A program made the translations under genes and the position numbers. Below are positions 1 through 60,721 of a stretch of 64,000 bases of DNA, piece by piece. Origin of the DNA: Bacilli bacterium (lineage in GTDB: Bacteria; Bacillota_I; Bacilli_A; RFN20; CAG-826). Each line of letters opens with the position of its first letter. The stretch's first letter is position 1. The notes beneath the pieces were generated by a model. It had not been told where the DNA came from. It saw only the letters and a program-made list of their open reading frames with translations, and did no database searches. The stretch is taken from positions 49,665 to 113,664 of the forward strand of contig JAFUEZ010000002.1 in the NCBI GenBank assembly GCA_017470115.1, read 5' to 3'.

Positions 1-1860
1 AGCACTTAGAATATTAAAGGATATAGTATGTATACCTGCAGAAAGCTTACTAACATTAGTTTTTGAATCTTTGAAATTATACCAATCGTTTCCGTCAGTT
101 CTTCCTAAAGTTATGTTGTCGTTATCTACGTGTTCACCATCGATTTTAATATCATATGCGCCACCTGTTTGAATAGCTTCATATTTACAAACAGTGGCAA
201 TTGCTTCGAGGTCAAATTCTTCTTTTAAGTCAAAAGTCCAACTCCAACTTGCTTTTAATACTGAATGAAGTGATTTGCCGCCACTAGCGTAAGAATTTGG
301 TTCAACAAGTTTTTCCCAATCTTTATCGCTTTGTTTTTCTTCGATGCCTTCAATTGGAAGATCTTCTGCTTCTAAAGTAATTTCTTTAGCTTCGTCGATA
401 ACATAATCTGGTTCAGGTGCTGGTTCGCTAAATTTGAATAAAACCTTATCTACATTAACGGCACTTAATATATTAAAGGAAATAGTGTGTACTCCAGCAG
501 ACAATTTGCCGATGTTTGTTTTTGAATCTTTGAAATTATACCAATCATTTCCGTCAGTTCTTCCTAAAGTTATGTTGTCGTTATCAAAGTGTACTCCGTC
601 CACTTTAATATCATAGGCTTCACCTGTTTGAATAGCTTCATATTTACAAACTGTAGCAATTGCTTCAAGGTCAAATTCTTCTTTTAAGTCAAAAGTCCAA
701 CTCCAACTTGCTTTAAAAACTGAATGAAGTGATTTGCCGCCACTAGCGTAAGAATTTGGTTCAACAAGTTTTTCCCAATCTTTATCGCTTTGTTTTTCTT
801 CGATGCCTTCAATTGGAAGATCTTCTGCTTCAATTGTAATTTCTTTAGCTTCGTCAACCACATAATCAACGGTATCTTCAGGTTCTTCAACTGGTGCAAA
901 ATCAAAATAATCAATATTTGCAGTGCCACTACCTGTATTACTAACTACAACTATTTTGGCATCGTGTGTACCTTCAGTAAGTGTTGCTTGTTCAAAATGT
1001 AAAGTTTGCCATTGTGTGATATCTTCACGTGCATCAAGGTTGCCTGTTAAAGCAATTTCTTGTGTGTCATCTAAAACTAATTTATAAGTTAATGACATAT
1101 CAACAGTTTTATCTTTTTTGCCCTCAACTTGAGCAAAAGCGCCACTAATATCATATTTTCCTGTTGCTGGAACAACAATTTTGAAATATGCAGGCTTTGC
1201 ATTTGTAACATTTCCTGTAGCAGCAGCCAAGAATTTACCGCCGCTTGCATCAGCTCTTTCAACAATAGGGGTGTCGTTGCCACTGCCAATTACCCAGTCT
1301 TTTGTATCAACTCTTTCGGCCTCAAATCTAACAGTTTCGGTTTCACTTAATTCAACAGTATGATCTTCAACAACTGGTGGTTCTTCTGGTTCTGCATTTG
1401 GATCAGTAAATTTAAGTACGATTTTATCAACATTAATTGCATCTAAAATATTGAAGGAAATCTTGTGTGAGCCAACTGCAACTTTTCCAACTTCAGTTTT
1501 AGAATCTTTGAAGTTGTACCAATCGTTACCATCTGTTCTTCCTAAAGTGATGTTGTCGTTATCGAAATGAACACCATCAAGTTTAATTTCATATTTTGTT
1601 CCTGTTTGAATTGCTTCGTATTTACAAACAACTGCAACAACTTCTAAATTTAATTCTTTTTGAACATCTAAATCCCAGCTCCAGCTTGCTTTAACAACTG
1701 AATGAAGTGATTTGCCGCCACTAGCGTAAGAATTTGCTTCAACAAGTTTTGACCAATCTTTATCGCTTTGTTTTTCTTCGATGCCTTCAAATGGAAGATC
1801 TTCTGCTTCAATTGTAATTTCCTTGACATCATCAATTACATAGTCAACATGTCCTTCAAC
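1..1860 (-). repeat. Intragenic tandem repeats. Two near-identical units of about 459 bp lie at roughly 1-440 and 440-900, and a diverged third copy lies at roughly 1395-1860.
   Basis: Direct comparison shows, for example, 62-130 matching 521-589 almost perfectly at an offset of 459 bp. The region 1500-1800 is a diverged copy of the same unit. Confidence 0.85.
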
Positions 1861-3129
1861 AGTAATTGGGAAGGCAAATTCGTGGCCATCATAAATAGCA
1901 ACTATTTCTGTATCTGTAATTTCAACAACCTCTTTTTTAGCTGTGAAGCCTTCAGTAATATCTTCTGTTGAATCGTCGTTATATTTTGCTGTTAAAACTA
2001 AGCCAGATAAATCAACAGTTTCACCAGCAACATAGTGTGTTTTTGTTGGTGCCGATTTAACTTCATAACCGACCAATTCTTTTTCCATGACTTTGTCACC
2101 GTATTTTGTAACGACAAAATCAAAATAATCCATATTTGGTTTTCCTGAAACACATTTAACTGAGAATGTGTGTTTTCCTTTTGAAATCGAAACGACTCCA
2201 ACAGGGAATTCGCACCAATCCCAATATCCATTTTTGCCAAATTCTTTATCTTGAGCGACTATAACTTGGTCGTCCATTTTAAATTCAAGAGCTTCTGATA
2301 AACTATAATCTTTACCAATATCAGCCATTGCAGCTTTAATAAGGATTGTAGAATCTTCTTTTGCTTCAAAACGGATTTTGAAAATTGAATTCAAATTATA
2401 ACCACAGATTGACTTGCCTCCGCTTGTAACTGAACCATCATTTGGTGATTCAATAAATCCTCTTCCAGCCTGAGCAAAATCTTCTCTTAAAATTGCTTCA
2501 CTGAAATCGAGTTCTTCGGCTTCAAGTCTAATTGTTTTTAAATCATCAATAACTACGTCGACAGGATCTGTGACAGTGATGCTGATTTTTGCTTCAAAAG
2601 TTTTATATCTGACGATCATTTCCTTATCAGATTCTTTTAATTCTCTATCCGCATCAACAATTGTGTAATCTTTAACTTCTAAAGTTGATTCATCTTCATA
2701 GACAGCGTGAACTACTAATCCGGTAGGATCAAATTTTTGATTGATTTTATATTCTAATTTATAAGGTTGCTCTTTGATTATAATTCCCTTAACAGCAACT
2801 TCACGAACTGTGATGTCTAATGTACAAGTAAAATTTTGATAAGTAAATGTGATGACTTTATCTTGTAAAGTCAATGGGTCGTGTTTATCCCAAGTATATC
2901 CACTTACAATCTTTTTTTGTCCGTCTTTCCAAGTAGACTCAATAACGACACCAGTAGGATCAAAAACTTCTCCAACTTTATATGTTGTTTTTGTTGGTGG
3001 TGTTTTAATTGAAATACTTACTATTTCGTTTTTGACATAAATAGGTTCTTCGCTTTCATTACATGCTACTAAAGAGCCAGTTAATAATGCGCAACTTAAT
3101 ACCGCTAATGCGATTCTTCTTTTTTTCAT
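1..3129 (-). CDS. Large cell-surface lipoprotein, 3' end outside the window. It has a signal peptide with a lipobox, three Big_3-like Ig domains, and several galactose-binding-like (CBM6/35-like) modules including tandem repeats.
   Basis: A continuous minus-strand ORF runs from the ATG at about 3129 to the window edge; it is missing from the ORF track because there is no in-window stop. The N-terminus reads MKKRRIALAVLSCALLTGSLVAC (lipobox), with a GGAGG ribosome-binding site upstream. Big_3-like units (YKVGEVFDPTGVV...) occur three times. CBM-like modules end in (M/I)DYFDF and carry DNDNITLGRTDGNDWYNFKDSK motifs. Confidence 0.8.
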   Translation of the reverse strand, partial: MKKRRIALAVLSCALLTGSLVACNESEEPIYVKNEIVSISIKTPPTKTTYKVGEVFDPTGVVIESTWKDGQKKIVSGYTWDKHDPLTLQDKVITFTYQNFTCTLDITVREVAVKGIIIKEQPYKLEYKINQKFDPTGLVVHAVYEDESTLEVKDYTIVDADRELKESDKEMIVRYKTFEAKISITVTDPVDVVIDDLKTIRLEAEELDFSEAILREDFAQAGRGFIESPNDGSVTSGGKSICGYNLNSIFKIRFEAKEDSTILIKAAMADIGKDYSLSEALEFKMDDQVIVAQDKEFGKNGYWDWCEFPVGVVSISKGKHTFSVKCVSGKPNMDYFDFVVTKYGDKVMEKELVGYEVKSAPTKTHYVAGETVDLSGLVLTAKYNDDSTEDITEGFTAKKEVVEITDTEIVAIYDGHEFAFPITVEGHVDYVIDDVKEITIEAEDLPFEGIEEKQSDKDWSKLVEANSYASGGKSLHSVVKASWSWDLDVQKELNLEVVAVVCKYEAIQTGTKYEIKLDGVHFDNDNITLGRTDGNDWYNFKDSKTEVGKVAVGSHKISFNILDAINVDKIVLKFTDPNAEPEEPPVVEDHTVELSETETVRFEAERVDTKDWVIGSGNDTPIVERADASGGKFLAAATGNVTNAKPAYFKIVVPATGKYDISGAFAQVEGKKDKTVDMSLTYKLVLDDTQEIALTGNLDAREDITQWQTLHFEQATLTEGTHDAKIVVVSNTGSGTANIDYFDFAPVEEPEDTVDYVVDEAKEITIEAEDLPIEGIEEKQSDKDWEKLVEPNSYASGGKSLHSVFKASWSWTFDLKEEFDLEAIATVCKYEAIQTGEAYDIKVDGVHFDNDNITLGRTDGNDWYNFKDSKTNIGKLSAGVHTISFNILSAVNVDKVLFKFSEPAPEPDYVIDEAKEITLEAEDLPIEGIEEKQSDKDWEKLVEPNSYASGGKSLHSVLKASWSWTFDLKEEFDLEAIATVCKYEAIQTGGAYDIKIDGEHVDNDNITLGRTDGNDWYNFKDSKTNVSKLSAGIHTISFNILSA

Positions 3130-3284
3130 TATTTTCCTCCTAAAAATTATTGGCTAATATTATCGAAGCCTCAAAATTAATGACAAAACTATTATAAAAT
3201 TACTAATTTTACTTTGTTTCAATTGTGCATAAGTTTCGTTTAAATTGTCGTATTTTTAACTAAATCAAGGAAATTAGGTTTCAA

Positions 3285-6364: not shown

Positions 6365-7480
6365 TTATTTTCTGCGTTCTATTTGAGAGGTTTTATAATA
6401 TTCAGATTTGTCGACATACATCGCTTTTTCTGCTTGTCGAATTAAATCTTGAAGAGAAGTGTTTTTGTCGTTACGGAAAGCTAAACCTATTGAACAAGTA
6501 TATTTAGTTTTGCTCAAATCTTCTTTGATTTCATCGACGATTTCTCTAACTGCATCTTCTTTCATATTGTTAGCAATAACAACAAATTCATCGCCACCTA
6601 ATCGATATGCATACATGTCTCTATTGCATTTATCCACAATTATTCTAGAAATTTCAATTAAGGCTTTGTCACCTTCTTCATGTCCGAAATTATCATTTAA
6701 ATATTTAAGTCCATTCATATCAAACTGAATAACAGCCGATGAACTCGCTTCCATTCTTAATAAATCTTGATAATAAGTGGAACGATTAAATAGATTAGTT
6801 AAAGCGTCTCGTTTTCTTTTTTCCATAAATAGGAATAGATAATAAGACATAACACAAATCATAATTCCTGTATTAAGAATGTGGATGTCACCGTTTTCGT
6901 TAAAGAACGTTTCAATAGATACACATGAAAGAATCAATATTACACAAACTAAAATAATAATCGCATTGGAGATATGTTTGAGTTTTATGCTCATTACGGA
7001 AACATATAAGAAATAAATCAAATATAAAAGACCAACAATATGAGAAGAGAACCTTAGTGGCCCTCCGTCAAATCCGATTTCTTCTCCTTTTATTGAGAAT
7101 TGAAATACATATTGTTTAACTCCTGGGATAAAAGCTAAAAGGAAAATCACAAAGTTAATCATTAATGGAATAGTGAATACAATCGACCATTTTCCTTTTG
7201 GTTGACCTTTACTTAAGAAGATAAATAAAACCACACAAACAGGTCTTAAAACATATTGAAGAAAAGCTACCACTGTCGTCGCTTCAACTGATGCAATATC
7301 TTTAAAATGTTGTTCTAATACTTCTGTGATTGATAGCAAAATCGCAATGCCTGTAATTGCTAACATGAATTCACTTGTTCTTTTATGTTGCTTAAAATTA
7401 AAAATCGAAATGAAAATCATGATTGCACTAATAACAATCAAGAAAATGTTTGATACGAGATAGTTTAAAAAGTGATTCAT
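6365..7480 (-). CDS. Membrane-anchored diguanylate cyclase with an N-terminal multi-TM sensor region and a C-terminal GGDEF domain.
   Basis: It contains the RLGGDEF motif in an FDMNGLKYLNDNFGHEEGD...YRLGGDEFVV context, and about six TM helices in residues 1-200. Confidence 0.8.
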   Translation of the reverse strand: MNHFLNYLVSNIFLIVISAIMIFISIFNFKQHKRTSEFMLAITGIAILLSITEVLEQHFKDIASVEATTVVAFLQYVLRPVCVVLFIFLSKGQPKGKWSIVFTIPLMINFVIFLLAFIPGVKQYVFQFSIKGEEIGFDGGPLRFSSHIVGLLYLIYFLYVSVMSIKLKHISNAIIILVCVILILSCVSIETFFNENGDIHILNTGIMICVMSYYLFLFMEKRKRDALTNLFNRSTYYQDLLRMEASSSAVIQFDMNGLKYLNDNFGHEEGDKALIEISRIIVDKCNRDMYAYRLGGDEFVVIANNMKEDAVREIVDEIKEDLSKTKYTCSIGLAFRNDKNTSLQDLIRQAEKAMYVDKSEYYKTSQIERRK

Positions 7481-7648: not shown

Positions 7649-7741
7649 ATTTTTTCATATTCACTATATAACGTGTTTATATATAAAAGCAAAGGGCTTA
7701 GCTTTTGCCATGCCCTTTGTTTTTGAAAGAATATTTTATGA

Positions 7742-10700
7742 TTAATATTCTTCTTCTGGTTCTTTTCTTTCTTTCACATTAATCTTGCCGAGTGCAATAA
7801 GAGCAATGAAAGCTGCATCTACAAGTGCTAAGACACCAGCAACAATCCAACCAGCGATTAAGCCTGATTTCCATGGGGACATTTCATACCAAATGGAAGC
7901 ACTTGGGGAAATACCTTGGACACAGTTACTATTTGCTTTGTTGAATAAAATGTGTTTTGTAGCATCTTTTAAGTGATAGACAGCTGTTGGGGAAGATGTG
8001 TCATATAAACCATCTGTACCATTATTGGTAAGAGTTAAGTGACCACCTCTTCTTAACATGAAGTCAGAAGTCATATAAGTATTCTTTTGACCACCAGCAT
8101 CAGTAATTGCTGTACCTGTGAAGCCAAATTCATCTTCGAGGATGTCATGGATAGAGACGCTTGCACCGCCCCATGTGGCACCGATTCTGTTATAACATGT
8201 CATGATGCCTGTTGCAGCTGACATAGTCTTTTTGGATAAATTGGTATCTAATTCTTCGCCAACTTGTGCATAATATTTAACTTCCATTTTGGCTTCTTTC
8301 ATGTAAAGTTCCCAACCTTTAAGGTAGACTTCACGGAAAGCTTGTTCGTTAACCCATGAACAATAACCATTCTTTTGACGATTTGTTTCTTGATCGTTTA
8401 ATGCATAGTGTTTCATGAAGGTGATTAAACCTTTTTCGGAAGCACCACCTGCTTCAGCAGCAGCCATCTTACCAGCTAAGATACCATCTTCTGAATAATA
8501 TTCATAGTTTCTACCACCGAAGGCGCTTCTATGCATATTGAGACCATAACCATAGATACCAGTGATTAATGTGCCACCTGCTAAGTAGTTAGCATGAGCT
8601 TCTTCACCGAAGGCTTCACCTAGTTCTCTAGCGAGTTTTTCATTGAATGTTGCAGCAACCATTGGATCACCACAGTACCATTTATTGATGTTTTTAATTG
8701 TCAAAGCGTGAGCATAATAACCATATGGGGAGTCAGCATCATAAGATTCTGGAACACCATTTTCGACGTCAGCTTTTTCATTCCAACCACCATTGGTGAC
8801 CATTTCAACCATCTTAGAGAGGGTGAATTGATTCATATAGTCATCCCATTTTGGATCATTGAAGTCAACACCTCTCATACTTGCTAATGTATAGCTTGTA
8901 CCATCGGTATTAACGCTTGGCATTTCTTTGATTGGATTATTTTCTTCTGCCCAAACATCGTATCTGGCAACTTGTTTCAATGCTCTTGCGTCTGTTAATT
9001 CAAAGTCATCTTCTACTGGAGATTGTGGGAAAGAGTCTTTAAAGTTAGTTCTTGTGAAGTTAATAGCATAGCCTTCACCATGATCAGCTTCACCAAAATT
9101 TTTGAAGTGATAATTTAATTCATCATCTTCTTTATTAATAGCAACTGATTTATCTGTGGAACGTTTGCCATCTACGCCATCTTTATAAACAACTTTCTTA
9201 GAAAGATTATCAGTCCATAAGACTTTTTCTTTGCCAGAGGTCATTTCATCGATGTCAGCCCAAGAGTGAGCGTTATCAGATAAATAGAAGTTATAATTAC
9301 CAGCATCTAAAACGTAGGCTTTTTCAACTTGATAATCATAGCTTGTAAAGTAGTCTCTATTGACCTTAATTTCTAAGGTTTCAGAAGCACCAGCCGCTAA
9401 GATTTCGGTTTTTCCAAATCCGCCTAATACGACATGTGATTTTTCGACGTGATTTGCCTTATTTTCGGCTGTGTAAGGAACATTAACATAAATTTGAGCA
9501 ACACCTTTACCAGCAACAGGACCAGTATTAGTGACTTTAACTTTGAATGTGTATTCATTAGAAGCAGCATCAAATGATGGAGTTTCAGCAAATTCTTGTG
9601 CAAATGTTGTATAGCTTAAGCCATAACCGAATGGGAAGACGACTTCTCTAGCATAATCAAAGCCATTATAGTTACCTTCTTTCGCTTCTTTATAAGCTGT
9701 TTCATAATAACGATAACCGACATAGATTCCTTCTTCATAATCAACGAAGAATGTTTCATCTTGATAAGAATTTAATTCATCAGAATTTGAATACACGTAT
9801 GAACCGAAATTCTTATATGTTGGATCTTTTCTTAAATCACGGACATATGTATCAACTAAGTGACCAGATGGGTTAACAGCGCCTTTTAAGATATTAGCTA
9901 ATGCAATTCCACCTTGAGAACCACAGCAACCAGCCCAGATTGCACCATTAACTTTAGAAAAATCATATTTATTACCTGTATATGGATCTGTATAGTTACC
10001 ATCAGAATCCATGTTTGGATCGTTTTCTTGTAACCAACCAAGTTCCATTGCGTTAGCAGAGTTAACGACAATAATAACTTTGTTGAAGTGTTTACAAGCA
10101 TAATCAATGAGCTTTAATTCAGCGTTATTGATAACTAAGCCACTTCTATTTTGTTCACTCATGCCTTGATTTAATGATTGGTCATTACCTTCACCAGAGT
10201 TTCTCTTTAAGGTGATGACGGCTGTTGGATATGAAGCAAATGTAGATTCAGCACTGGCTAAGGCAGTAGCTGGATCAACAAAATCACCATTTGCAGTAGC
10301 ATAAACTTGTTTAGTAGCTTGATTGAATGGGATATCTGTATCTTGTTCAATGCCGTTGGCTAAAGAGACTGCTCCACTTGTGCTTGCTGGGTCTTCACCT
10401 CCAGACATATTGTTGTGCCAAGAATAATAGCCTAACACAGTGACACCTTCATTAGCAGCAAGTGGTAAAGCGTTATTCTTGTTTTTTAACAATGTCATAC
10501 CTTCTTCAGCGGTAAGTTGTGTCATTCTTTGTGCGTTTTTTAAAGCATCGTCTTGATTATCAAATTCAAAATCAATGTAATTGCCATCTAAAGAGCTATT
10601 ATCTTTAGTATGTTGTTTGCCACGTCCAAGTAAGAGATCTAAGTTGTTTTCTTGAACGTTAGCGGCAATTGTGACGCCACCTAATAAAGCCAAGACGGCA

Positions 10701-10753
10701 CCTCCTATGATGGCTAAGTAAGTAATTCTTCTATTTTTAGCTTTCATGTTCAT
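7742..10753 (-). CDS. Glycoside hydrolase family 3 enzyme (beta-glucosidase/xylosidase-like) of 1003 aa. The domain order is circularly permuted, with an N-terminal signal-anchor and a C-terminal TM helix.
   Basis: KHYALNDQETNRQ and GFTGTAITD (the domain-1 KHF and nucleophile-Asp region) lie near the C-terminus. The alpha/beta-sandwich region lies near the N-terminus. Hydrophobic segments occur at both ends. Confidence 0.8.
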   Translation of the reverse strand: MNMKAKNRRITYLAIIGGAVLALLGGVTIAANVQENNLDLLLGRGKQHTKDNSSLDGNYIDFEFDNQDDALKNAQRMTQLTAEEGMTLLKNKNNALPLAANEGVTVLGYYSWHNNMSGGEDPASTSGAVSLANGIEQDTDIPFNQATKQVYATANGDFVDPATALASAESTFASYPTAVITLKRNSGEGNDQSLNQGMSEQNRSGLVINNAELKLIDYACKHFNKVIIVVNSANAMELGWLQENDPNMDSDGNYTDPYTGNKYDFSKVNGAIWAGCCGSQGGIALANILKGAVNPSGHLVDTYVRDLRKDPTYKNFGSYVYSNSDELNSYQDETFFVDYEEGIYVGYRYYETAYKEAKEGNYNGFDYAREVVFPFGYGLSYTTFAQEFAETPSFDAASNEYTFKVKVTNTGPVAGKGVAQIYVNVPYTAENKANHVEKSHVVLGGFGKTEILAAGASETLEIKVNRDYFTSYDYQVEKAYVLDAGNYNFYLSDNAHSWADIDEMTSGKEKVLWTDNLSKKVVYKDGVDGKRSTDKSVAINKEDDELNYHFKNFGEADHGEGYAINFTRTNFKDSFPQSPVEDDFELTDARALKQVARYDVWAEENNPIKEMPSVNTDGTSYTLASMRGVDFNDPKWDDYMNQFTLSKMVEMVTNGGWNEKADVENGVPESYDADSPYGYYAHALTIKNINKWYCGDPMVAATFNEKLARELGEAFGEEAHANYLAGGTLITGIYGYGLNMHRSAFGGRNYEYYSEDGILAGKMAAAEAGGASEKGLITFMKHYALNDQETNRQKNGYCSWVNEQAFREVYLKGWELYMKEAKMEVKYYAQVGEELDTNLSKKTMSAATGIMTCYNRIGATWGGASVSIHDILEDEFGFTGTAITDAGGQKNTYMTSDFMLRRGGHLTLTNNGTDGLYDTSSPTAVYHLKDATKHILFNKANSNCVQGISPSASIWYEMSPWKSGLIAGWIVAGVLALVDAAFIALIALGKINVKERKEPEEEY

Positions 10754-10759
10754 TTCCTC

Positions 10760-11407
10760 CTATTCTTTGACGACTTGAACGTTTTGTTGATTAACTTTAC
10801 GTGCATAGTATTTTTGGAATAATAAGACACCACAGTTAATAGCTTTGAAGATGCCGGTGATTAAGCAGACAACTAAGACCACAGTTGGGTAATAGTCTTT
10901 GCCAAAATATAATTCACCATTCATAGCTGGTAATAAGTATTCTTCATAATAATTGGTGTAAGAACCGGTCACGTGTTTAGCGTTTTCAATCCAAAGTTTG
11001 TCACAGTTGAAGAGAATGATGCCACCAAAGATTAAACAAATGGCAACGATTCCTTCAACGATGGCTTTTTTCTTATTTGTGCCTCTTCTGTTGAAGTTAG
11101 TAGCGAGCATAATGCAAGCAACGATACAACCGATTAATGGTAAGAAACAACCTAAGAATGTCCAGATGTTGAATGTGGCTTCTGTGTAACCTTGAATAAT
11201 CATGTTTCCATAACCAGAGAAGATGGCTTGATAGCCTGGATAACTAAAGCCATTAGCATATTTTGTGCCATCATCTGTAAAGATTGTGAAGACATCTGAG
11301 AAATTAAATAACACTAATATGACAATCGCTAAAATGCCTAAAGCGATAGAGATGAGGGCTAAGATTTTAGCTGTTGGTTTTAAGATCTTTAAAACTTTGT
11401 TTTCCAT
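10760..11407 (-). CDS. Polytopic membrane protein of 215 aa, function unknown, in the same operon as the GH3 gene.
   Basis: It has about five or six TM helices and is tightly linked: a 6-bp gap to the GH3 gene and a 13-bp gap to the upstream lipoprotein gene. Confidence 0.55.
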   Translation of the reverse strand: MENKVLKILKPTAKILALISIALGILAIVILVLFNFSDVFTIFTDDGTKYANGFSYPGYQAIFSGYGNMIIQGYTEATFNIWTFLGCFLPLIGCIVACIMLATNFNRRGTNKKKAIVEGIVAICLIFGGIILFNCDKLWIENAKHVTGSYTNYYEEYLLPAMNGELYFGKDYYPTVVLVVCLITGIFKAINCGVLLFQKYYARKVNQQNVQVVKE

Positions 11408-11420
11408 TATTTAGTCCTCC

Positions 11421-12899
11421 TTATTTAGATTGAGTTAAGACAACATCAATGGTTTGTGTGCCAAAGAAGCTACTCACTTTGATTTGATAGACGAAGCCAT
11501 ATTTACCTTTAGCATCTTTAGCGGACACTAATGGTTCTCTACCTTCTAAGTTAACGTTTAATGTGCTGTCGGCTTCAGACCAAGTTCCTGAAGCTGTTGG
11601 AGCAAAACCGCCTTCATATAAGTTGGCCTTACCATCAACGCCTAAGTTAAGGTTGACAGACTTTGTGCCACCATCTGGACCAGATGTGGTATAGGAGCCA
11701 ACAAATTCATATTTTGATTCACCATCGAAATCAGAAAGAGTCATTTTGTTCCATTTGACTTCTGGGTTTAAGCTGACAAAATAAGCTAAGTTATTATAGA
11801 CGAGTCTATAACCTGGGTGATCTTTATTAACGGAAGCAGTTGTTTCGTAAGTTTGTTCACCATCTTTGATAACGATCTTGCCATTATCTTCAGACCATGT
11901 TGGGCCATAACTAACAGTACGGTTTGCACCACTTGGGCTATTTAAGACGACGGAACCATCGTTATGTAAGTACATATAAGCTGTAGCTTTGCTATTGTTA
12001 TTACCAGTAGCAACTGCCTTGAAGATGTATTTGCTATCTCTTTCATCCCATTTAGCGTAATCTTTCGCTAAAGTTTTATAGAATGTTGGATCTTTAGCTT
12101 GGAATTTAACTAAGGATTCGTGGCCTTCGATGTTGACGTTATAGTAGAATTCATGACGGCCTTCGTATTTATCAAAGTCAGCGTGAATAACTGTTTTGTT
12201 TTCATCATTGAGATTTAAGATATAGCCATATCCTTCTTCTAATTTATAGGTTCCGCTTAATGACCAGTTATGAGCAGCTAAGTCTTCTTTAACGACTGTT
12301 AATTCAGCTGAAGCTGATTTAGTTGGATCACCTTGGCTTGTTGCAGTAATCGTGACTTTACCTTCGGCCTTTGGTGTGATGGTGCCACTGCTGACAGTAG
12401 CAATTTCTTCATTAGAAGAAGACCATGTGACGTTTTTATTTGTAGCGTTTTCTGGAAGAATTGTAGCTGTTGCTTTAACGGTTTGACCGATGAAGGCTTG
12501 TGTCATATCGAGTGAAAGACTGATGCTTTCCACTGCGACTTCTGGTTGTTGTTCACCTCCACCTGGGCCGCCTTGACCACCAGGACCACCGCCTCCACCT
12601 GGGAAGCCGCCTGGGAATCCACCGCCTGGGAATCCGCCACCAGGACCGCCTTGACCACCACTATTACCGGATGAACGACCTTGAACAATACCTTGTAAGG
12701 TGAAATTGTTACTTTTTTGATCAACAACACCTTTAAATTTGTAAGCGTAGTCGCCAATTGTTACTTCTGTATTATAGGCACTAGAAGTTGTAGCGACAAA
12801 TACGACAGGGATTTTTGCATTGCTCTGACAAGCGCCTAAACTAACAATTGATGTTGCTAAGACGATGGAGAGTAAAGCATTTTTCTTAAATACTTTCAT
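11421..12899 (-). CDS. Surface lipoprotein of 492 aa with a Gly/Pro-rich linker, a Big_2 domain and a C-terminal beta-rich domain. It is the first gene of the GH3 operon.
   Basis: The lipobox is SLGAC. The linker reads GGQGGPGGGFPGGGFPGGFPGGGGGPGG. The Big_2 signature is VKATATILPENATNKNVTWSSSNEEIATVS...AEGKVTITATS. A GAGGAGG ribosome-binding site precedes the ATG. Confidence 0.7.
   Translation of the reverse strand: MKVFKKNALLSIVLATSIVSLGACQSNAKIPVVFVATTSSAYNTEVTIGDYAYKFKGVVDQKSNNFTLQGIVQGRSSGNSGGQGGPGGGFPGGGFPGGFPGGGGGPGGQGGPGGGEQQPEVAVESISLSLDMTQAFIGQTVKATATILPENATNKNVTWSSSNEEIATVSSGTITPKAEGKVTITATSQGDPTKSASAELTVVKEDLAAHNWSLSGTYKLEEGYGYILNLNDENKTVIHADFDKYEGRHEFYYNVNIEGHESLVKFQAKDPTFYKTLAKDYAKWDERDSKYIFKAVATGNNNSKATAYMYLHNDGSVVLNSPSGANRTVSYGPTWSEDNGKIVIKDGEQTYETTASVNKDHPGYRLVYNNLAYFVSLNPEVKWNKMTLSDFDGESKYEFVGSYTTSGPDGGTKSVNLNLGVDGKANLYEGGFAPTASGTWSEADSTLNVNLEGREPLVSAKDAKGKYGFVYQIKVSSFFGTQTIDVVLTQSK
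12540..12670 (-). repeat. GC-rich imperfect short repeats (GGxCCnGG-like) encoding the Gly/Pro-rich linker.
   Basis: Reiterated units ccacctggg, ccgcctggg and ccaccagga form a local GC island in an AT-rich genome. Confidence 0.6.
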
Positions 12900-12973
12900 T
12901 GTATTCCTCCTCTACCTCTTTCGAGTTTTTCATGACTATATCCTATAAGAAAAAAAGTAAAGAAAAACCATTT

Positions 12974-13042
12974 GGGAAAAGCTCCCGTTATTAAGGGACA
13001 TAAATAATTTAAATGGGACAAAAGTCAAATTTATTGGGACGA
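12974..13042 (-). promoter_or_regulatory. Four direct repeats of TGGGA(C/A)A (TGTCCCA on the transcribed strand) at 21-bp spacing upstream of the GH3 operon; putative LytTR response-regulator boxes.
   Basis: GGGAMA occurs at about 12974, 12995, 13015 and 13036. A -10-like TATAGT lies downstream, nearer the ATG. VirR and AgrA-type boxes are direct repeats with the same periodicity. Confidence 0.5.
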
Positions 13043-13090
13043 AAAAAGACAATCAATAGATTGCCTTAATTCACATAAGTGTGACTTATT

Positions 13091-13825
13091 TTATAAATAA
13101 ATAGATTTATTTTTACGCGTAACAGAAAGGTATTCTTCCATGATTTCATCTTTTCTTTTACTAGAAAGAGGGAGAACTTTATTATTAGTTAATTTAACCT
13201 CATTTGTACCAATCATTCTAATAAATAGATAATTAACTAAATACCCTTTGTGTACACGTATGAAACCATTTTCTTTTAATTTGCTTTCTAATTCACCCAT
13301 TAGTACACGGGCATCGAATTTAGAACCATCTTTTAAATAAAAAGTTTGATAGTTTCGATTACCTTCGATATACATTACTTGATCAATATCCGCGGAAATC
13401 GTTTCGGTTTTACAAGAAATAGTAATCTTTTTATTTTCTCTATTAGTATTGAGCGCTGTATTAACAAATAGTTCCAAAACACTAGCGAAGTCCTGAATAA
13501 TTCTTGATTTACGGATAAAACCAAATGGATGGAGTTGTAATGTATCAAATACTAAATCTTCTCTTTGAGAAAGATAGATAATATCAGTTTGAGGATTGAA
13601 ACCTTTTAATTTTTTACCAACTTCTAAGCCGTTAATTTCTGGCATATCAATATCAAGGAAGACAAGACGATAATTTTTTTCCTCGGCCATCGCTAAAAAG
13701 TTAATAGGAGAAGAAAAAGCATCTAAAGAGATAGCAATATTCTTTTCTTGAAAGAAAGATTCTATAGCGCCTTTAGAAATGAGTAAGGCAGTCTTATCAT
13801 CATCAAGCAAAGCAATCTTAAGCAT
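13091..13825 (-). CDS. Response regulator with a receiver (REC) domain and a LytTR DNA-binding domain (AgrA/VirR-like).
   Basis: The receiver motifs are LLDDD and FLDIDMP. The C-terminal LytTR region reads YIEGNRNYQTFYLKDGSKFDARVLMGELESKL...FIRVHKGYLVN. Confidence 0.85.
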   Translation of the reverse strand: MLKIALLDDDKTALLISKGAIESFFQEKNIAISLDAFSSPINFLAMAEEKNYRLVFLDIDMPEINGLEVGKKLKGFNPQTDIIYLSQREDLVFDTLQLHPFGFIRKSRIIQDFASVLELFVNTALNTNRENKKITISCKTETISADIDQVMYIEGNRNYQTFYLKDGSKFDARVLMGELESKLKENGFIRVHKGYLVNYLFIRMIGTNEVKLTNNKVLPLSSKRKDEIMEEYLSVTRKNKSIYL

Positions 13826-15173
13826 TGTTAACTCCCTTATGGTTCATATTTAATAAACAATCACAGACGAACTTGTCATCTTCAAAAGCAAACGAGACAT
13901 AACCTTCATATTTCTTAGCGATATTTTTAATAATTTTAGTGCCATATCCGTGTGCTTTACCATTTTTTGTCGTTCTTAGTGATGGCTTACCTTTAACTTG
14001 ATTTGTTTCCACACTATTAAAAGCGGTAATTCGCAAATAATCTTGTTGGGTAACAATAGCGACATTAATAAAATCTTCTTCATTTTTTGGCACAAAATTT
14101 TCTAATGAATTATCAACAATATTAGTGATTAAAGATAATAAATCACTGTCCTCAAAAGGAAGATGAGGAGGAACCACTACTTTGAATTTGATTTTTTTAT
14201 TATCAATCTTAGCTTTAGTTAATTCTAAATTAACAATGCCAGAGACCACCAAGTTAGAACACGAAAAACTATATAAATATTCTTCTTTTTGGTTAATCAA
14301 AGATTGAATATAATTGTTTGCTTCTTCATATTTACCATCATTTAATAAAACTTGTGTATAGCTGAGTTGATTTCTTAAATCATGACGTATCTTCATTAAT
14401 TCTTCACGGTTATTCATATCAATTTCTAAAGCATCTTTTTCCATTTCCATAACGCTATTAGAAACTTCAAGTTCTGTCACTTTGTGACGATAATCAATCA
14501 AAGAATAAATGGAATAATAAATACCTGTTAAAACACCAAGTTCTACGACTGAAACAAAAATTAATAAGGCGCGACCACCTGAATCACTAACGTTTAAGAA
14601 GTTTTGCCAAACCGCACTGACACTAAGAAGAGCGGCTAAAGACAAAAGAATAGCAACATGGGTAATTGGTAATCTTTTAAATCTCATAATGTCAAATTTA
14701 TAAATTACCATAGCAATAAATGGCAAAAGAATAATTGGTATGCTTCTTGCTAAGACAACAAAGAAAGTAATACCTGTTAATTCACCAACCGCCATACCTA
14801 ATGTACGACCAATCTCTTCTGTAATTAATGTCGAAGCCACTACTACAGCAATTTTAATAATTTTATGTAATGGACGATCTTTAAGAAAGAAAACAATAAA
14901 AAGTGTTGGAATGACCGCAAAGGAAGCGGTAAATAACATACCACCAATTTGTAGGCTAATCATATTAGCCAATGCAAAGAAGATTGATTCTAATCCCACA
15001 AAGCAACAATATATGATAACAAACGTCACTGCTGACCAGAGAACACTCTTTTTAGTAAGCGTTTTAGGGGCAGTAATAATAATTAAAGAAAACGACATGA
15101 AAAAGTATTGAATATACATCGTCGCATCTAAAACACGTGTAAAATAAGTCGCCAAAAAATCTATGAAATTCAT
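13818..15173 (-). CDS. Sensor histidine kinase of the HPK10 (AgrC/ComD/VirS-like) class, with a 6-TM N-terminus and no HAMP domain.
   Basis: The H-box is IRHDLRNQL, the N-box is NIVDNSLENF and the G-box is KNGKAHGYGTKII. It overlaps the response-regulator gene by 8 nt. Confidence 0.8.
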   Translation of the reverse strand: MNFIDFLATYFTRVLDATMYIQYFFMSFSLIIITAPKTLTKKSVLWSAVTFVIIYCCFVGLESIFFALANMISLQIGGMLFTASFAVIPTLFIVFFLKDRPLHKIIKIAVVVASTLITEEIGRTLGMAVGELTGITFFVVLARSIPIILLPFIAMVIYKFDIMRFKRLPITHVAILLSLAALLSVSAVWQNFLNVSDSGGRALLIFVSVVELGVLTGIYYSIYSLIDYRHKVTELEVSNSVMEMEKDALEIDMNNREELMKIRHDLRNQLSYTQVLLNDGKYEEANNYIQSLINQKEEYLYSFSCSNLVVSGIVNLELTKAKIDNKKIKFKVVVPPHLPFEDSDLLSLITNIVDNSLENFVPKNEEDFINVAIVTQQDYLRITAFNSVETNQVKGKPSLRTTKNGKAHGYGTKIIKNIAKKYEGYVSFAFEDDKFVCDCLLNMNHKGVNNA

Positions 15174-15215
15174 ACTTAACTATATTAACATAGTTACCTC
15201 TATTTTGATATCACA

Positions 15216-15242
15216 GGGACAAAAAGTGCCCCTTTTGGGACA
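15216..15242 (-). promoter_or_regulatory. Two GGGACA direct repeats 21 bp apart upstream of the kinase/regulator operon; a putative autoregulatory LytTR site.
   Basis: The sequence tcacaGGGACAaaaagtgccccttttGGGACAaac lies 45-70 bp upstream of the kinase start. Confidence 0.45.
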
Positions 15243-15398
15243 AACAAAATGTTTTTGTATTGACAAGTTCATATGCAAAACTCGTTTTATTTATTTTGTT
15301 ATAAATCTCTCGTACTTCGTTCAACAATTTGAAGAATTATAAGAAAGAAAAAGATGCCATTATAGACTAAATGGGTTCACTTCAAATGCTAATCTTTT

Positions 15399-16398: not shown

Positions 16399-19300
16399 AT
16401 GTTTAAAAGATATTTTGGTAATGCAACAAAAAAGCAAATTAAAACAAAAATAGTGTTAATTGCGGCCTTTTTGCCATTAATTATAGCAACTTTTATCGGT
16501 CTTGGAATTGGAAACCATTTTGCTTTCAATGTCTATGACTCAAACATAACTGCTTATCTTTGTAATCCTGTCGCTGGTAACAATGAAAGTATTATTGCCA
16601 CCAAAAAAAGCGGCAATGAATTATCTAGAGAAATTGAAAGAGAGGGTGCGGTTTTAGTTAAAAACGATGGAACCTTACCTTTGGATAAAAGCATTAATAA
16701 AGTTAATGTTTTTGGACATTCTTCTATAGACTGGTATTATTCAGGCGGCGGTTCAGGTGCGGTTAACGCAAATGGGGAAATTCAATATAATGTCCCAACA
16801 GCTTTAATGAATAATGGTGTTGAATATAACCATGATTTATATAACTTTTACACTAATTTTAGAGGTCCATTAGGAGGGAATAATCCTAACTTAGGTGGCG
16901 CGAGAGCGGAAACCATCTGTGTTCTTGCAGAACCCACACTAAGTTCGTATGGAAATCTTTTAAATAGTGCCAAGTCATTCTCTAACACCGCAATAATGTG
17001 CATTTCAAGAAAAGCGGGTGAAACCGAAGATATTCCTCATGCTCAATATAAATATAATGCGGATACCGATTTTACTAGGGGTTATTTAACCATCTCCACC
17101 GAGGAAGAAGCGTTACTTGAATGGATTTGTGATAATTTTGAAAATGTTATCGTTTTAATTAATTCCACAAATCTGATGCAATTAGACTTCCTTGATAGAA
17201 TTGAAAAAATTGATGCTTGCTTAATATGTGGCTGTACTGGAAACTATGGGGCTAATGGAATTGTTGATATTATTTATGGTGAAGTATCTCCAAGCGGAAA
17301 AACAACGGATACATATCCATATAAATTAGAATATGAACCATCCTATTATCGTGGTGGTTATGAATATATCAATAACTATGAAGGAGCCCCTTCAAGCGCA
17401 TGGCCATATAACCGTAATTATAAAGATAGAAATGAAAGAAAGGTTTTCTATGTCGATTATATTGAAGGTATTTATGTTGGCTATAAATGGTATGAAACTG
17501 CTGACGTAGAGGGTTTCTGGGATGGCGAGCCATATAATGGGTATGAAAATGTTGTTCAGTTCCCCTTTGGTTTTGGAATGTCGTATACCACCTTTAGTTG
17601 GGAATTAGAGGAAACATCATTAGCAAATGGTGGTCGAATCACCTCTAATAAGGATGAAATCACTGTCAAAGTTAAAGTCACAAATACGGGAAATTTCAAA
17701 GGTAAAGATGTCGTTGAAATCTATATGACTCCACCATATTATAATGGGCAAATCGAAAAGGCTCATGTTAACCTTGTAGGCTTTATGAAATCACCAGAAC
17801 TTGAAAGTGGGCAAAGTGTTTCTCTTACATACACGATTAGGGTGTCTGATTTTGAAAGCTATGATTGTTACGATAAAAACAATAACGGACATGTTGGTTA
17901 TGAACTCGATCAAGGTGAATACATAATTAAATTTATGGAAGATTCACACACTCTAAAAGAGATGAATACCAACACCTTAACTTATCATATCGATAACACG
18001 ATTAACGTTGATGTTGATGAAGTTACTGGTCAAAAAGTCACAAATATCTTTACTGGCGAAAAAGCGATTGATGGTGGAAGTTCGGATGGGAGCACTCTTA
18101 ATCAAAATGTTGATTTTATGACAAGAGAGAATTTTGTTCTTCCAACCACCACACAAACAAATCGTAACTGGAACATGGCTCTAGAAGTGTCTCCTACTTC
18201 TGCTTGTATTAATACATATTCCACCACCATTAGAGACGCTTGGGATAATAAGACGGGAAATGATGGTTTTGGAAATCAAATACCAACCACTAATCCATCA
18301 TGGGGCAGCGGCTCTGGTTCAAACAAAGTTATTACTGGCGGGCAATTAACAGAATTAGGACGTATACTTGCCGATCCAGAAAATTGGAATGATGATGAAA
18401 ATTGGAATAAGATTTTAGATCAAATTTCCTGGGATGAAGCTATCGATGTCATTAATACCAATTCATTAAGTAATGATAAAGGCATTCCAAGCGCAGGTAG
18501 ACCAGATGGAAATGATGCGGATGGTCCACAACAAATTGGCGCTATTGCTGGTATTGGTTCAGTTAGAGGAACAGCTTACCCTTGCATTACTGTCACCGGT
18601 CAAACATGGTCAACATCTTTAGCATATCAAATGGGGAAATCATATGGTAAAGATATGCAGGCTGTTGGAAGAAGCGGCGCTTACGCCTTTGGGGCGAACA
18701 TCCACCGTTCTGCCTATACAGGAAGAAATTTTGAATACTTCTCAGAAGACGGATTCCTTTCAGGAAAAATGGCTTCAAACGCTTCTAAGGGTGTCGCGGT
18801 TACTGGTAAATATTGCTTTATGAAGCACTTCGCGGTTAACGACCAAGAATATCACCGCGTTGGTTTATATACTTGGGTTAGTGAACAAGCAATTAGAGAA
18901 ATCTATTTAAAGCCTTTTAAAGAATGTGTTCTATATGGTGAATTAAGTGCCTTAATGACCTCCTTTAATAGAATTGGCAGTATTTGGGCTGGAGGAAGTG
19001 AAGCCTTGATTACCGGTGTTTTAAGAAACGAACGGCAATTCCATGGAATGATTGTTACCGACTACTGTGAATCATCTCAATTAATGGATCAGGCTCAAGC
19101 AGTTAGAGCGGGTTCTGATTATGGAATGAATATGCATTACACTAGTGGTGTATCTTCGTCTTTACCAAATAGAAGTTCTGCTACTCCTAGATTTCAGTGG
19201 AGAATGAAAGATGTTTGTAAAGAAATTATTTACGGGTACATTCATCCACTGCTTGTGAATTTTAACTACAACGAAAGCGCCGATGAAGAAGAATATATTA

Positions 19301-19452
19301 TTGTTACTAGTAGTAAAAATCCTTGGGAATGGTGGCGTCCAACATTAGTCAGTATTGATGTCGCTATTGGAGGAGGACTCTTATTCTGCCTCTACTTGCT
19401 TTTAAGACCAATTGTGGAACCAGAAGAAAATGGAAAGGAGGGTGTAGAATAA
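16399..19452 (+). CDS. Second GH3-family glycosidase of 1017 aa, a paralog of 7742..10753 with the same permuted domain order and both N- and C-terminal TM anchors.
   Basis: KHFAVNDQEYHRVG and GMIVTDYCES lie at the C-terminal end. AVLVKNDGTLPL...GGGSGAVN lies at the N-terminal end. The C-terminal TM helix is LVSIDVAIGGGLLFCLYLLL. Confidence 0.8.
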   Translation: MFKRYFGNATKKQIKTKIVLIAAFLPLIIATFIGLGIGNHFAFNVYDSNITAYLCNPVAGNNESIIATKKSGNELSREIEREGAVLVKNDGTLPLDKSINKVNVFGHSSIDWYYSGGGSGAVNANGEIQYNVPTALMNNGVEYNHDLYNFYTNFRGPLGGNNPNLGGARAETICVLAEPTLSSYGNLLNSAKSFSNTAIMCISRKAGETEDIPHAQYKYNADTDFTRGYLTISTEEEALLEWICDNFENVIVLINSTNLMQLDFLDRIEKIDACLICGCTGNYGANGIVDIIYGEVSPSGKTTDTYPYKLEYEPSYYRGGYEYINNYEGAPSSAWPYNRNYKDRNERKVFYVDYIEGIYVGYKWYETADVEGFWDGEPYNGYENVVQFPFGFGMSYTTFSWELEETSLANGGRITSNKDEITVKVKVTNTGNFKGKDVVEIYMTPPYYNGQIEKAHVNLVGFMKSPELESGQSVSLTYTIRVSDFESYDCYDKNNNGHVGYELDQGEYIIKFMEDSHTLKEMNTNTLTYHIDNTINVDVDEVTGQKVTNIFTGEKAIDGGSSDGSTLNQNVDFMTRENFVLPTTTQTNRNWNMALEVSPTSACINTYSTTIRDAWDNKTGNDGFGNQIPTTNPSWGSGSGSNKVITGGQLTELGRILADPENWNDDENWNKILDQISWDEAIDVINTNSLSNDKGIPSAGRPDGNDADGPQQIGAIAGIGSVRGTAYPCITVTGQTWSTSLAYQMGKSYGKDMQAVGRSGAYAFGANIHRSAYTGRNFEYFSEDGFLSGKMASNASKGVAVTGKYCFMKHFAVNDQEYHRVGLYTWVSEQAIREIYLKPFKECVLYGELSALMTSFNRIGSIWAGGSEALITGVLRNERQFHGMIVTDYCESSQLMDQAQAVRAGSDYGMNMHYTSGVSSSLPNRSSATPRFQWRMKDVCKEIIYGYIHPLLVNFNYNESADEEEYIIVTSSKNPWEWWRPTLVSIDVAIGGGLLFCLYLLLRPIVEPEENGKEGVE

Positions 19453-19453
19453 T

Positions 19454-20602
19454 ATGAAACGCAAACTTGCAAAGAAAATGTCTTTAATCCTTGGTATTAG
19501 TATTGCCTCCTTTGTAGTGGGTTTCAGTGCTATTACAATATTGGTGTCTAGAATTAACTACGCTAATTATGAAAAAGAATATGATGACGAAGTCAAAGAG
19601 GTTGAAAACGCAAAACCAAAAGGGCCACTTTATGTCGATATTGATAATGAATTTGTGACCTATGACAGCACTGGCGCTTTCATTCAAAAAACAAAATCTA
19701 TTTATCCCTATATTTACACTTGTAGAAGCACGGAAGCTGAATCCCGCGCATACGCTGCAGGAAAAAATGGCTACATAAACGTTGAAATCTATGATAACAC
19801 TTCATTTTTTGGACAGAGTATCGGTAATATTGCCCCAAACGGCGGAGGATATCTCTCCTTTATAGTTGATGTCACAGAACCTGCAGATGCGGATATTGAT
19901 TTTGTTTGTTCTTCTACTATTTATAATCCTGAAACTGGATCTGCTACAGATATGAAAGGATTAACAAAATTCGTTAAATGGACGATAAACAATATTCAAA
20001 TTGATGCTGACGATATCAATCTTCCTGCCGATAGAGATTGGTTTAATATGCAACATGTCATCCTTCATAAGGTTCATTTAAAAGCAGGGATTAATGTAAT
20101 TAAAATGGAAACCGAAAATCCAAACCCACTTAATCCTTCCGACATCCCGATTCCAAACATTTCTCATATCCATGTATTTAGTGAAAAACCATACAACAAA
20201 CAATTTGTCGTTGATGGTGATAGTGTCCACCTTGTTCAAAGAGCAAACAAAATTTATTATATGTTATCTGGCTCTTGTGTTGGTTATGAAGCAGATGATT
20301 TCTTTGTCGATATGTGCTTAGATGGTCAAAGCCTAAATCAAATCAACAAAAATGCATATGATTGCGTGGTAAGAGATGGTTATTTCTTAATCACTATTGA
20401 TACTTCGTGGTTTGCACCAAATCTATATCTCCCACACTTCTGGCTCGAAGGTTCTTTATATAACACTGGCAGAGAACAAGGTGATGTTATGACCTCAATT
20501 GACGCTGGTAGATATAATTGGGACAATCCTCACACCAAGCAAACACTTGGAAACGCTAGAATTGATATTAAGAATTCAATTATGGCATTAGTCATTAGCT
20601 AA
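19454..20602 (+). CDS. Membrane-anchored protein of 382 aa with a beta-rich extracellular domain, possibly a carbohydrate-binding module. It is translationally coupled to the GH3 gene.
   Basis: Its start lies 2 nt after the GH3 stop and an AAGGAGGG ribosome-binding site sits inside the GH3 3' end. It has an N-terminal TM helix. No catalytic motif was recognised. Confidence 0.5.
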   Translation: MKRKLAKKMSLILGISIASFVVGFSAITILVSRINYANYEKEYDDEVKEVENAKPKGPLYVDIDNEFVTYDSTGAFIQKTKSIYPYIYTCRSTEAESRAYAAGKNGYINVEIYDNTSFFGQSIGNIAPNGGGYLSFIVDVTEPADADIDFVCSSTIYNPETGSATDMKGLTKFVKWTINNIQIDADDINLPADRDWFNMQHVILHKVHLKAGINVIKMETENPNPLNPSDIPIPNISHIHVFSEKPYNKQFVVDGDSVHLVQRANKIYYMLSGSCVGYEADDFFVDMCLDGQSLNQINKNAYDCVVRDGYFLITIDTSWFAPNLYLPHFWLEGSLYNTGREQGDVMTSIDAGRYNWDNPHTKQTLGNARIDIKNSIMALVIS

Positions 20603-55734: not shown

Positions 55735-55735
55735 A

Positions 55736-56590: not shown

Positions 56591-56609
56591 AAAAATTACC
56601 TTTAATAGA

Positions 56610-58744: not shown

Positions 58745-58745
58745 T

Positions 58746-60071: not shown

Positions 60072-60073
60072 TT

Positions 60074-60718: not shown

Positions 60719-60721
60719 GAA

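Follow-up and report, generated by a model that had tools for sequence, protein, structure and literature searches.

The Streptococcus pneumoniae system ComD/ComE takes its signal from the peptide ComC, for whose export a C39 ABC (ATP-binding cassette) transporter is responsible, and the Clostridium perfringens system VirS/VirR responds to an Agr-type peptide from an unlinked agrBD locus. The operators of LytTR regulators consist of two repeats of 9-11 nt with spacers of 11-13 nt, and in Escherichia coli BtsS/BtsR and YpdA/YpdB a LytTR protein acting on two repeats ~21 bp apart activates one neighbouring or dedicated operon on a nutrient signal (PMC4847170). Three LytTR regulators of Butyrivibrio proteoclasticus B316 (described in 2010; PUL7, 21 and 33) each lie beside a secreted glycoside hydrolase family 3 (GH3) protein with a C-terminal transmembrane helix; that paper put forward a carbohydrate-sensing role for the genome's sensory and regulatory proteins in general, the LytTR ones included (PMC2914790). 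Here we describe a sensor kinase and LytTR response regulator, together with the adjacent operon encoding a lipoprotein, a membrane protein and a GH3 glycosidase. All five genes are on the minus strand of a 64-kb stretch of contig JAFUEZ010000002.1, which we refer to as the window and to which all positions refer unless a locus is named; the host is an uncultured gut or rumen bacterium.

Our analysis indicates that the five genes probably form a self-contained module in which the kinase and its LytTR regulator activate a surface glycosidase operon via phased boxes, with autoregulation as an option. In this mechanism the AgrC-like (HPK10/HATPase_c_5) polytopic kinase would phosphorylate the REC-LytTR regulator, which in its phosphorylated form would bind TTTYRTCCCW direct repeats arranged at a 20-21 bp period. 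Four such boxes ahead of a promoter with a poor -35 element would then allow the regulator to switch on the lipoprotein-membrane protein-GH3 operon. Two further boxes on the kinase side, in the same register before a -10 element, would provide positive autoregulation of the kinase-regulator operon in this genome.

Phased boxes upstream of both transcription units

A first-pass annotation, made from the sequence alone, had reported six repeat boxes, and all six are where it placed them, its coordinates being those of the initial G in the plus-strand GGGA cores. Read on that strand, the boxes on the operon side are TGGGAAA (12973-12979), AGGGACA (12994-13000), TGGGACA (13014-13020) and TGGGACG (13035-13041), and those on the kinase side are AGGGACA (15215-15221) and TGGGACA (15236-15242). 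Core-to-core spacing is 21, 20 and 21 bp among the operon boxes and 21 bp between the kinase boxes. The description of the repeat as TGGGAMA captured the phased GGGA core, but only three of the six boxes match that heptamer exactly, and the conserved motif is WGGGAYRAAA or, on the coding (minus) strand, TTTYRTCCCW. With 10-nt boxes and a 20-21 bp period, the geometry fits the definition of a LytTR operator, and since this spacing is approximately two helical turns, all of the sites would be presented on the same face of the DNA.

The pattern GGGACA-N13-16-GGGAC has three matches in the 64 kb, all of them at the two promoter sites, compared with 0.01 expected from 100 shuffled sequences. Scanning for pairs 20-22 bp apart with a weight matrix built from the boxes of related loci returned the same two promoters only, whereas 200 Markov simulations averaged 0.025 pairs, and five of the six boxes are the matrix's five best single matches in the window. 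The search for further repeat pairs that had been suggested as a check on the annotation therefore identified none elsewhere in the window. Taken by itself, the heptamer TGGGACA is not enriched (six seen versus 3.7 expected); as the pairs are enriched and the lone heptamer is not, the signal resides in the phased arrangement. This phasing, which is that of LytTR operators, and the phylogenetic footprinting described below bear out the claim that paired repeats ~21 bp apart stand upstream of both operons. We regard the boxes as a well-supported candidate operator and promoter architecture, and infer from sequence that the regulator binds them and that activation of transcription results.

An Rfam scan of the region gave no riboswitch or leader element. 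We also considered the small open reading frames (ORFs) over the boxes (32, 38 and 15 aa) as genes and rejected them, given that they have TTG starts or lack a ribosome-binding site and that conservation tracks the 21-bp boxes with free spacers rather than a reading frame. The 28-aa ORF that the first-pass annotation placed over the kinase boxes was miscalled, the actual ORFs there being the 32- and 38-aa frames, each with a TTG start.

Extending the regulon via the metagenome pattern TTTGTCCCW-N10-12-TTTTGTCCC was abandoned, this pattern being too unspecific for a collection of such size: among the matches listed, 80 loci were fetched and none of the 80 encodes anything homologous to the kinase, regulator, lipoprotein or GH3. 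Separately, we noticed that several metagenome contigs contain perfect 21-22 bp tandem arrays that include TTTTGTCCCT (L046 2307-2380, L047 536-648, L064 2965-3038, L068 326-396 and L089 5733-5803), an example being the unit AAGTTGGGTTTTTGTCCCTAGA in 4-5 copies, with no kinase, regulator or GH3 homologue nearby. In these unrelated contigs the arrays look like iterons or other repeat operators.

Conservation of the module and its boxes

Over 200 relatives of the kinase are present in the protein collection. Loci were fetched for kinases with identities of 98, 84, 65 and 48%, and a dozen more, of ~40%, came from uncultured 'Bacilli'/'Mollicutes' rumen and gut metagenome-assembled genomes (individual loci are given L numbers); the ~16 loci compared span kinase identities of 30-98%. 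In each relative for which the flanking sequence is long enough, the five genes follow the order kinase-regulator-lipoprotein-membrane protein-GH3, and the outer neighbours vary.

Between the regulator stop codon and the lipoprotein gene, three to four phased boxes are found in 13 of 16 loci; the remaining three have two exact boxes 42 bp apart (L010) or one exact box each (L012 and L007). Most orthologues have an in-phase but degenerate fourth box, with the core TCCC, GCCC, ACCC or GCAC. In alignments of the closer loci (A4, A5) the boxes appear as invariant islands separated by diverged spacers, and the flanks of the boxes, which were not used for their selection, are nevertheless conserved, with T at -4 to -1 and A/T at +5. 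Box position, phase and core are kept through ~70% protein divergence, including in loci that have no terminator at this place.

The pair of boxes close to the kinase behaves differently. It is missing in six of the 15 loci that include sequence upstream of the kinase (L028, L001, L010, L012, L014 and L007), and is also missing in L008, a near-duplicate of L006. The suggestion of autoregulation thus fits this genome, where the pair is present upstream of the kinase, but is not general. Because the pair is absent from so many loci, control of the operon appears to be the constant feature of the module and autoregulation to be optional.

More distant relatives show variations on this arrangement. 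The cultured Faecalicatena orotica DSM 1287 has the rearranged order lipoprotein-membrane protein-GH3-kinase-regulator, and its boxes upstream of the lipoprotein gene read GTCAC, GTCAT, ACCCC and ATCCC, the last three being 21 bp apart and the first lying further upstream. Two Lachnospiraceae loci, L013 and L020, show an association of LytTR and GH3 genes with 21-bp-phased repeats. At ~4990-5040 of L020, a distant regulator-kinase-GH3 locus, ATACGGGG/TTACGGGA repeats (TACGGGR) lie 21 bp apart before the GH3 gene, which suggests the same regulatory logic acting through a different box.

The proteins of the module have diverged unequally. Across the orthologous loci L001-L015 and L024-L028, identity is 73-90% for GH3 and 67-92% for the membrane protein, compared with 29-34% for the sensor half of the kinase, a difference that could reflect either fast evolution of the sensor or exchange of GH3 genes between lineages.

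The kinase, the regulator and the operon products

Of the Pfam families, PF14501 (HATPase_c_5) matches the kinase with an E-value of 7e-15, and otherwise there is only a weak match to SPOB_a. No NCBIfam model matched it, and searches of PDB sequences gave no match with either the single sequence or a profile. Hydropathy identifies six to seven hydrophobic segments, and the AlphaFold2 model (mean predicted local distance difference test score, pLDDT, of 78) has seven helices in the membrane region. In this model residues 198-278 form one unbroken helix, in which the last membrane helix passes straight into the His264-bearing DHp helix, and by both hydropathy and the model the protein has almost no extracytoplasmic loops. 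The top Foldseek match of the model in the PDB is the cytoplasmic kinase of Staphylococcus aureus AgrC (6e52, E-value 4e-7); the catalytic domain aligns to AgrC 4bxi with a TM-score of 0.73, with other kinases close behind. An H-box, K-I-R-H264-D-L-R-N-Q, was found and is invariant among homologues, and across 22 kinase homologues H264, the N-box residues N351, D354 and N355, and the G-box H408-G-Y-G411 are all invariant.

The start of the regulator gene overlaps the stop of the kinase gene by 8 nt. Both of its Pfam domains exceed their gathering scores, and D8, D9, D58, S86 and K106 are invariant in 15 orthologues. In a profile search against solved structures ComE (4cbv) was closest, with an E-value of 8.5e-11 over residues 17-224. 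Scores against the named NCBIfam models are low: 26.8 bits for AgrA, where the cut-off is 400, and 36-37 bits for BtsR and LytR, where the cut-offs are 246 and 375, respectively. The PF14501 and LytTR domains, the continuous helix of the AlphaFold2 model and the AgrC fold match all agree with the first-pass call of an HPK10-like kinase with a LytTR regulator. Given that the catalytic and phospho-acceptor residues are invariant, we judge the pair to be signalling-competent. By sequence, it is a functional-looking HPK10/LytTR system in the architectural class of AgrCA, ComDE and VirSR that is orthologous to no named system.

The gap between the regulator and lipoprotein genes is 191 bp. The lipoprotein is confidently predicted to be all-beta, with a clear structural relative for its Big_2 domain only. 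For the 215-aa membrane protein, no Pfam or NCBIfam family was found even at E-values up to 10. The GH3 protein has one transmembrane helix at each end by hydropathy (residues 13-31 and 970-988).

Promoters and transcription units

A hexamer resembling a -10 element is found 28-29 nt past the proximal box core in the operon promoters of 13 of 16 loci, and 26-28 nt past it in all nine of the kinase promoters that have boxes. TAGGAT/TAGTAT is kept in L024 and L026, and L024 also has TAATAT at 28 nt in its kinase promoter. A generic promoter scan of the operon promoter found no sigma-70 consensus and no good -35, the lack of a consensus -35 being expected of an activator-dependent promoter.

No Shine-Dalgarno sequence precedes the kinase ATG. 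As this ATG is only 8 nt past TAATAT, and the kinase N-terminus is conserved starting at Met1 in the alignment of homologues, the kinase mRNA is probably leaderless. An AGAGG motif further upstream of the kinase start serves a 3-codon frame only (MLI, stop).

Two terminator-like hairpins set the kinase-regulator unit apart from the lipoprotein-GH3 unit (Table 1). At the position following the regulator, hairpins of differing sequence are found in L024, L026 and L028. The hairpin at the end of GH3 was overlooked by the terminator scan on account of its interrupted stem, and the genes downstream of GH3 vary between relatives.

Table 1. Features of the module, listed in order of position in the window
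Feature	Position	Strand	Description
Terminator-like hairpin and T-run 3' of GH3	7685..7720	-	RNA fold -19 kcal/mol, z -4.0; likely operon end
GH3 glycosidase	7742..10753	-	1003 aa; third operon gene; Pfam domains in the permuted order GH3_C, Fn3-like, GH3_N
Membrane protein	10760..11407	-	215 aa; second operon gene; four predicted helices (hydropathy)
Surface lipoprotein	11421..12899	-	492 aa; first operon gene; lipobox LGAC, Gly/Pro-rich linker, Big_2, all-beta C-terminal domains
Candidate -10 TAGGAT, operon promoter	12940..12945	-	28 nt after box 4 core; assigned by consensus
Operon box 4	12973..12982	-	GCTTTTCCCA; promoter-proximal, degenerate
Operon box 3	12994..13003	-	TTATGTCCCT
Operon box 2	13014..13023	-	TTTTGTCCCA
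Operon box 1	13035..13044	-	TTTCGTCCCA
Intrinsic-terminator-like hairpin 3' of regulator	13046..13067	-	Terminator scan; RNA fold -14 kcal/mol, z -6.4; T-run overlaps box 1
Response regulator	13091..13825	-	244 aa; REC and LytTR; Pfam Response_reg E 6e-13, LytTR E 3e-13
Sensor histidine kinase	13818..15173	-	451 aa; polytopic N-terminal sensor, then DHp helix with His264, then GHKL catalytic domain
Candidate -10 TAATAT, kinase promoter	15182..15187	-	28 nt after H2 core, 8 nt before ATG; assigned by consensus
Kinase-promoter box H2	15215..15224	-	TTTTGTCCCT; 21 bp from H1
Kinase-promoter box H1	15236..15245	-	GTTTGTCCCA; kept in L024, L026 and six more distant loci

The signal sensed by the kinase

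Among the 55 substantial ORFs of the window, Pfam searches turned up neither AgrB nor an ABC exporter with a C39 peptidase, and nothing that is obviously an enzyme of peptide maturation, and the only intergenic small ORFs of the window with a ribosome-binding site are rpmH and non-conserved frames over the boxes. Consistent with the earlier remark that no pheromone gene lies upstream of the kinase, both the scan for small ORFs and the Pfam searches were negative there. The genes upstream of the kinase differ from relative to relative, being marR with ABC exporters, an SDR gene or a toxin-antitoxin pair, and nothing peptide-related is conserved beside the module in the relatives with annotated flanks. 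By analogy with the enterococcal sex pheromones, we also considered the signal peptide of the lipoprotein as a possible pheromone, but rejected this as a general mechanism, as the orthologues in L001, L006, L010 and L014 are without the N-terminal lipobox cysteine.

Even in lineages that have diverged widely, the kinase and the GH3 genes are inherited together, and genes for a peptide, AgrB or an exporter are not found alongside. On these grounds, the signal most likely relates to the glycosidase module, be it through its substrate, its product or its surface state, rather than being a peptide pheromone encoded locally. The association of LytTR and GH3 genes in Butyrivibrio, for which carbohydrate sensing was proposed, is a further ground for a signal linked to the glycosidase. 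A bolder form of this proposal, which we put forward tentatively and hold to be somewhat less probable than not, is that the AgrC-like kinase would sense carbohydrate, in the form of a glycan or of a product of GH3. This would make it the first HATPase_c_5/HPK10 kinase shown to have a non-peptide signal. The module would be a widespread one in gut and rumen Firmicutes, defined by a LytTR regulator that induces a membrane-anchored GH3 apparatus through four in-phase TTTYRTCCCW boxes.

Several considerations weigh against the reading of the locus as a self-contained, glycosidase-linked module. To our knowledge, every experimentally characterised HATPase_c_5/HPK10 kinase senses a peptide, and a non-peptide signal would be without precedent. 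The low identity of the kinase sensor (29-34%) relative to that of GH3 (73-88%) and of the membrane protein (67-84%) is no less compatible with a variable, co-evolving ligand, for example a peptide, than with a fixed sugar. The search for pheromone genes and for further targets covered 64 kb of the genome. The GH3 protein gives partial matches, far under the cut-offs, to the NCBIfam models for beta-glucosidase, xylosidase and arabinopyranosidase. At the promoters, the -10 assignments are consensus guesses, and L028, L012 and L007 have no hexamer at the expected distance. Finally, the binding of the boxes by the regulator is deduced from proximity and architecture.

The first-pass annotation had instead favoured quorum or peptide sensing, for which the 64 kb, with no AgrB, C39 exporter or credible small ORF, and a module always tied to GH3, offer no positive evidence. 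In its fullest form, this explanation holds that the kinase and regulator are a true Agr/VirSR-like peptide quorum-sensing receptor pair, that the peptide and its processing genes are elsewhere in the genome, and that the GH3 operon is a density-controlled public good. The kinase does have the AgrC-type architecture, with AgrC as its best fold match, yet no NCBIfam model matches the kinase, and the regulator falls far below the 400-bit AgrA cut-off, at 27 bits. Boxes at the kinase promoter would supply the positive feedback typical of quorum-sensing circuits, but these autoregulatory boxes are missing in six of 15 loci. It is plausible for a glycosidase that is secreted or at the surface to serve as a cooperative trait, and divergence is much faster in the sensor domain than elsewhere in the module, as occurs in agr specificity groups; on the other hand, the pair is strictly co-inherited with the GH3 genes, the rearranged form included, and neither the window nor the annotated flanks of relatives hold AgrB, a C39 exporter or a candidate precursor beside the module. 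On balance we consider a peptide quorum-sensing system unlikely.

Another way to view the kinase is as a monitor of the operon's own membrane products, with the lipoprotein, the four-helix membrane protein or the GH3 anchors serving as co-sensors or feedback partners in place of a free small molecule, much as other intramembrane-sensing kinases rely on accessory proteins. A kinase that is nearly devoid of extracytoplasmic loops, and whose gene is invariably accompanied by those for a small, conserved membrane protein and for partners anchored in the membrane, would suit such a role. The membrane protein and GH3 are, however, 67-92% conserved where the kinase sensor is ~30% conserved, which is unlike a tight sensor-partner interface, and the membrane protein matches no known accessory-protein family, leaving this explanation with a small share of our confidence. 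That the repeats are not sites of this regulator at all, but chance T-rich/CCC motifs, sites of another factor or parts of a terminator, is highly improbable: box 1 does overlap the T-run of the regulator terminator, the lone heptamer is not enriched and unrelated metagenome contigs also contain the pair of 9-mers, in many cases as perfect tandem arrays with a 21-22 bp unit, yet the phased pairs are at ~100x expectation and only beside the two-component genes, their position, phase and core are conserved through ~70% protein divergence, also in loci without the terminator, and their distance to the -10 hexamer is fixed.

Genomic surroundings

The window is chromosomal and near the replication origin (rpmH, rnpA, yidC, jag, mnmE and ksgA at 55480-63024), with a GC content of 32%, and a metagenome scaffold of 180 kb, L030, contains the identical locus. 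A 33-bp block at 15251-15283, upstream of the kinase boxes, is near-identical in L024 and L026, where it forms a divergent marR promoter made up of TTGACA, a 17-nt spacer with the palindrome AGTTCGTATGCGAACT, and then CATAAT. The window has lost the marR-ABC genes and no longer has an intact -10, with TTGACA remaining at 15260-15265 (plus strand); the block thus looks like a promoter/operator relic. We had considered this TTGACA as the promoter of a small RNA or peptide, and rejected this in favour of its being a remnant of the divergent marR promoter. The place that marR-ABC occupies in L024 and L026 is taken by a YefM/YoeB-type toxin-antitoxin pair (PF02604, PF06769; 15399-15919, minus strand), which lies between the kinase promoter and a second GH3 gene; the module in L028 is flanked by a Phd/PIN pair instead.

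This second GH3 gene (16399-19452, plus strand) encodes a protein with the same permuted order of GH3_C, Fn3-like and GH3_N and a transmembrane helix at each end, and is ~30% identical to the first. It has no box pair ahead of it, and is followed by a gene for a 382-aa membrane-anchored protein to which no family was assigned (19454-20602, plus strand). Genes resembling this second GH3 adjoin the kinase in L002, L008, L015 and L016. Directly downstream of the GH3 operon, past the terminator-like hairpin, is a gene for a multi-pass membrane GGDEF diguanylate cyclase (6365-7480, minus strand); its position is not conserved, and it is not part of the conserved module in relatives. A very large surface-protein gene runs off the start of the window (1-3130); in L030 it encodes 1215 aa with faint Big_3 matches.

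Implications

Taken as a whole, the locus is a fairly ordinary but well-supported regulatory circuit. What is new here is the operator definition and an uncharacterised member of the LytTR two-component systems; the association of LytTR and GH3 genes had already been noted in the literature. If our reading is true, it provides a concrete operator (TTTYRTCCCW, 21-bp period) and promoter architecture for a widespread, uncharacterised LytTR family whose members, in Bacilli and Lachnospiraceae of the gut and rumen, accompany membrane-anchored GH3 glycosidases, and regulon prediction in metagenome-assembled genomes would become possible. It would also become testable whether AgrC-type kinases sense non-peptides, with Faecalicatena orotica DSM 1287 as a cultivable carrier. 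For annotation, the lesson is that an AgrC/AgrA-like architecture should not automatically bring with it a quorum-sensing label.

Comparison with known systems

The closest architectural likeness is to S. aureus AgrC/AgrA. As in that system, a polytopic sensor is directly joined to an HPK10-type core, AgrC is the top fold match in the PDB, and the regulator is of REC-LytTR type. The arrangement of direct repeats with ~21-bp phasing just upstream of promoters with a poor -35, together with the putative positive autoregulation, resembles agr P2/P3. Of the features that define Agr-type (AgrBDCA) systems, the 64-kb window thus has the sensor-kinase architecture and the REC-LytTR regulator, but neither an adjacent AgrD/AgrB nor equivalence at the sequence level. 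Unlike agr, the window has no agrB or agrD, similarity to AgrA and AgrC is at background level, and the box sequence, TTTYRTCCCW, is different. There are also four phased boxes at the target promoter rather than two, and the target is a glycosidase operon rather than a regulatory RNA or toxins.

The module resembles C. perfringens VirS/VirR in that no pheromone locus adjoins the LytTR two-component system, in its paired direct repeats and in a CCCA stretch. References cited in PMC2706048 indicate that the spatial organisation of VirR boxes upstream of the promoter matters, and the VirR box extends 3' of CCCA, as in the pfoA primer CCCAGTTATTCAC (PMC2706048). The resemblance to VirR boxes noted in the first-pass annotation proved to be superficial: only CCCA is common to both, and conservation here extends 5' (TTTY) and not 3' into AGTT-like sequence, the 3' positions carrying little information. 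VirS/VirR moreover responds to an Agr-type peptide, and no such link is seen in this module. S. pneumoniae ComD/ComE is similar in its REC-LytTR architecture and direct-repeat operators, ComE being the closest solved full-length relative of the regulator profile. It differs in its signalling components, as neither a ComC-like peptide nor a C39 exporter was found in the 64-kb window.

As in Butyrivibrio, a LytTR regulator adjoins a secreted GH3 with a C-terminal transmembrane helix. The Butyrivibrio association is an annotation remark without operator, promoter architecture or kinase type, and the likeness that we draw is one of gene association. The kinase is of the HATPase_c_5/AgrC type rather than the LytS type of BtsSR, YpdAB and LytSR, and the regulator scores far under the BtsR and LytR cut-offs, with 36 bits against 246 for the former. 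It is in functional logic that we propose a likeness to BtsSR and YpdAB, namely that a LytTR regulator acting on repeats with ~21 bp spacing would activate the single operon next to it.

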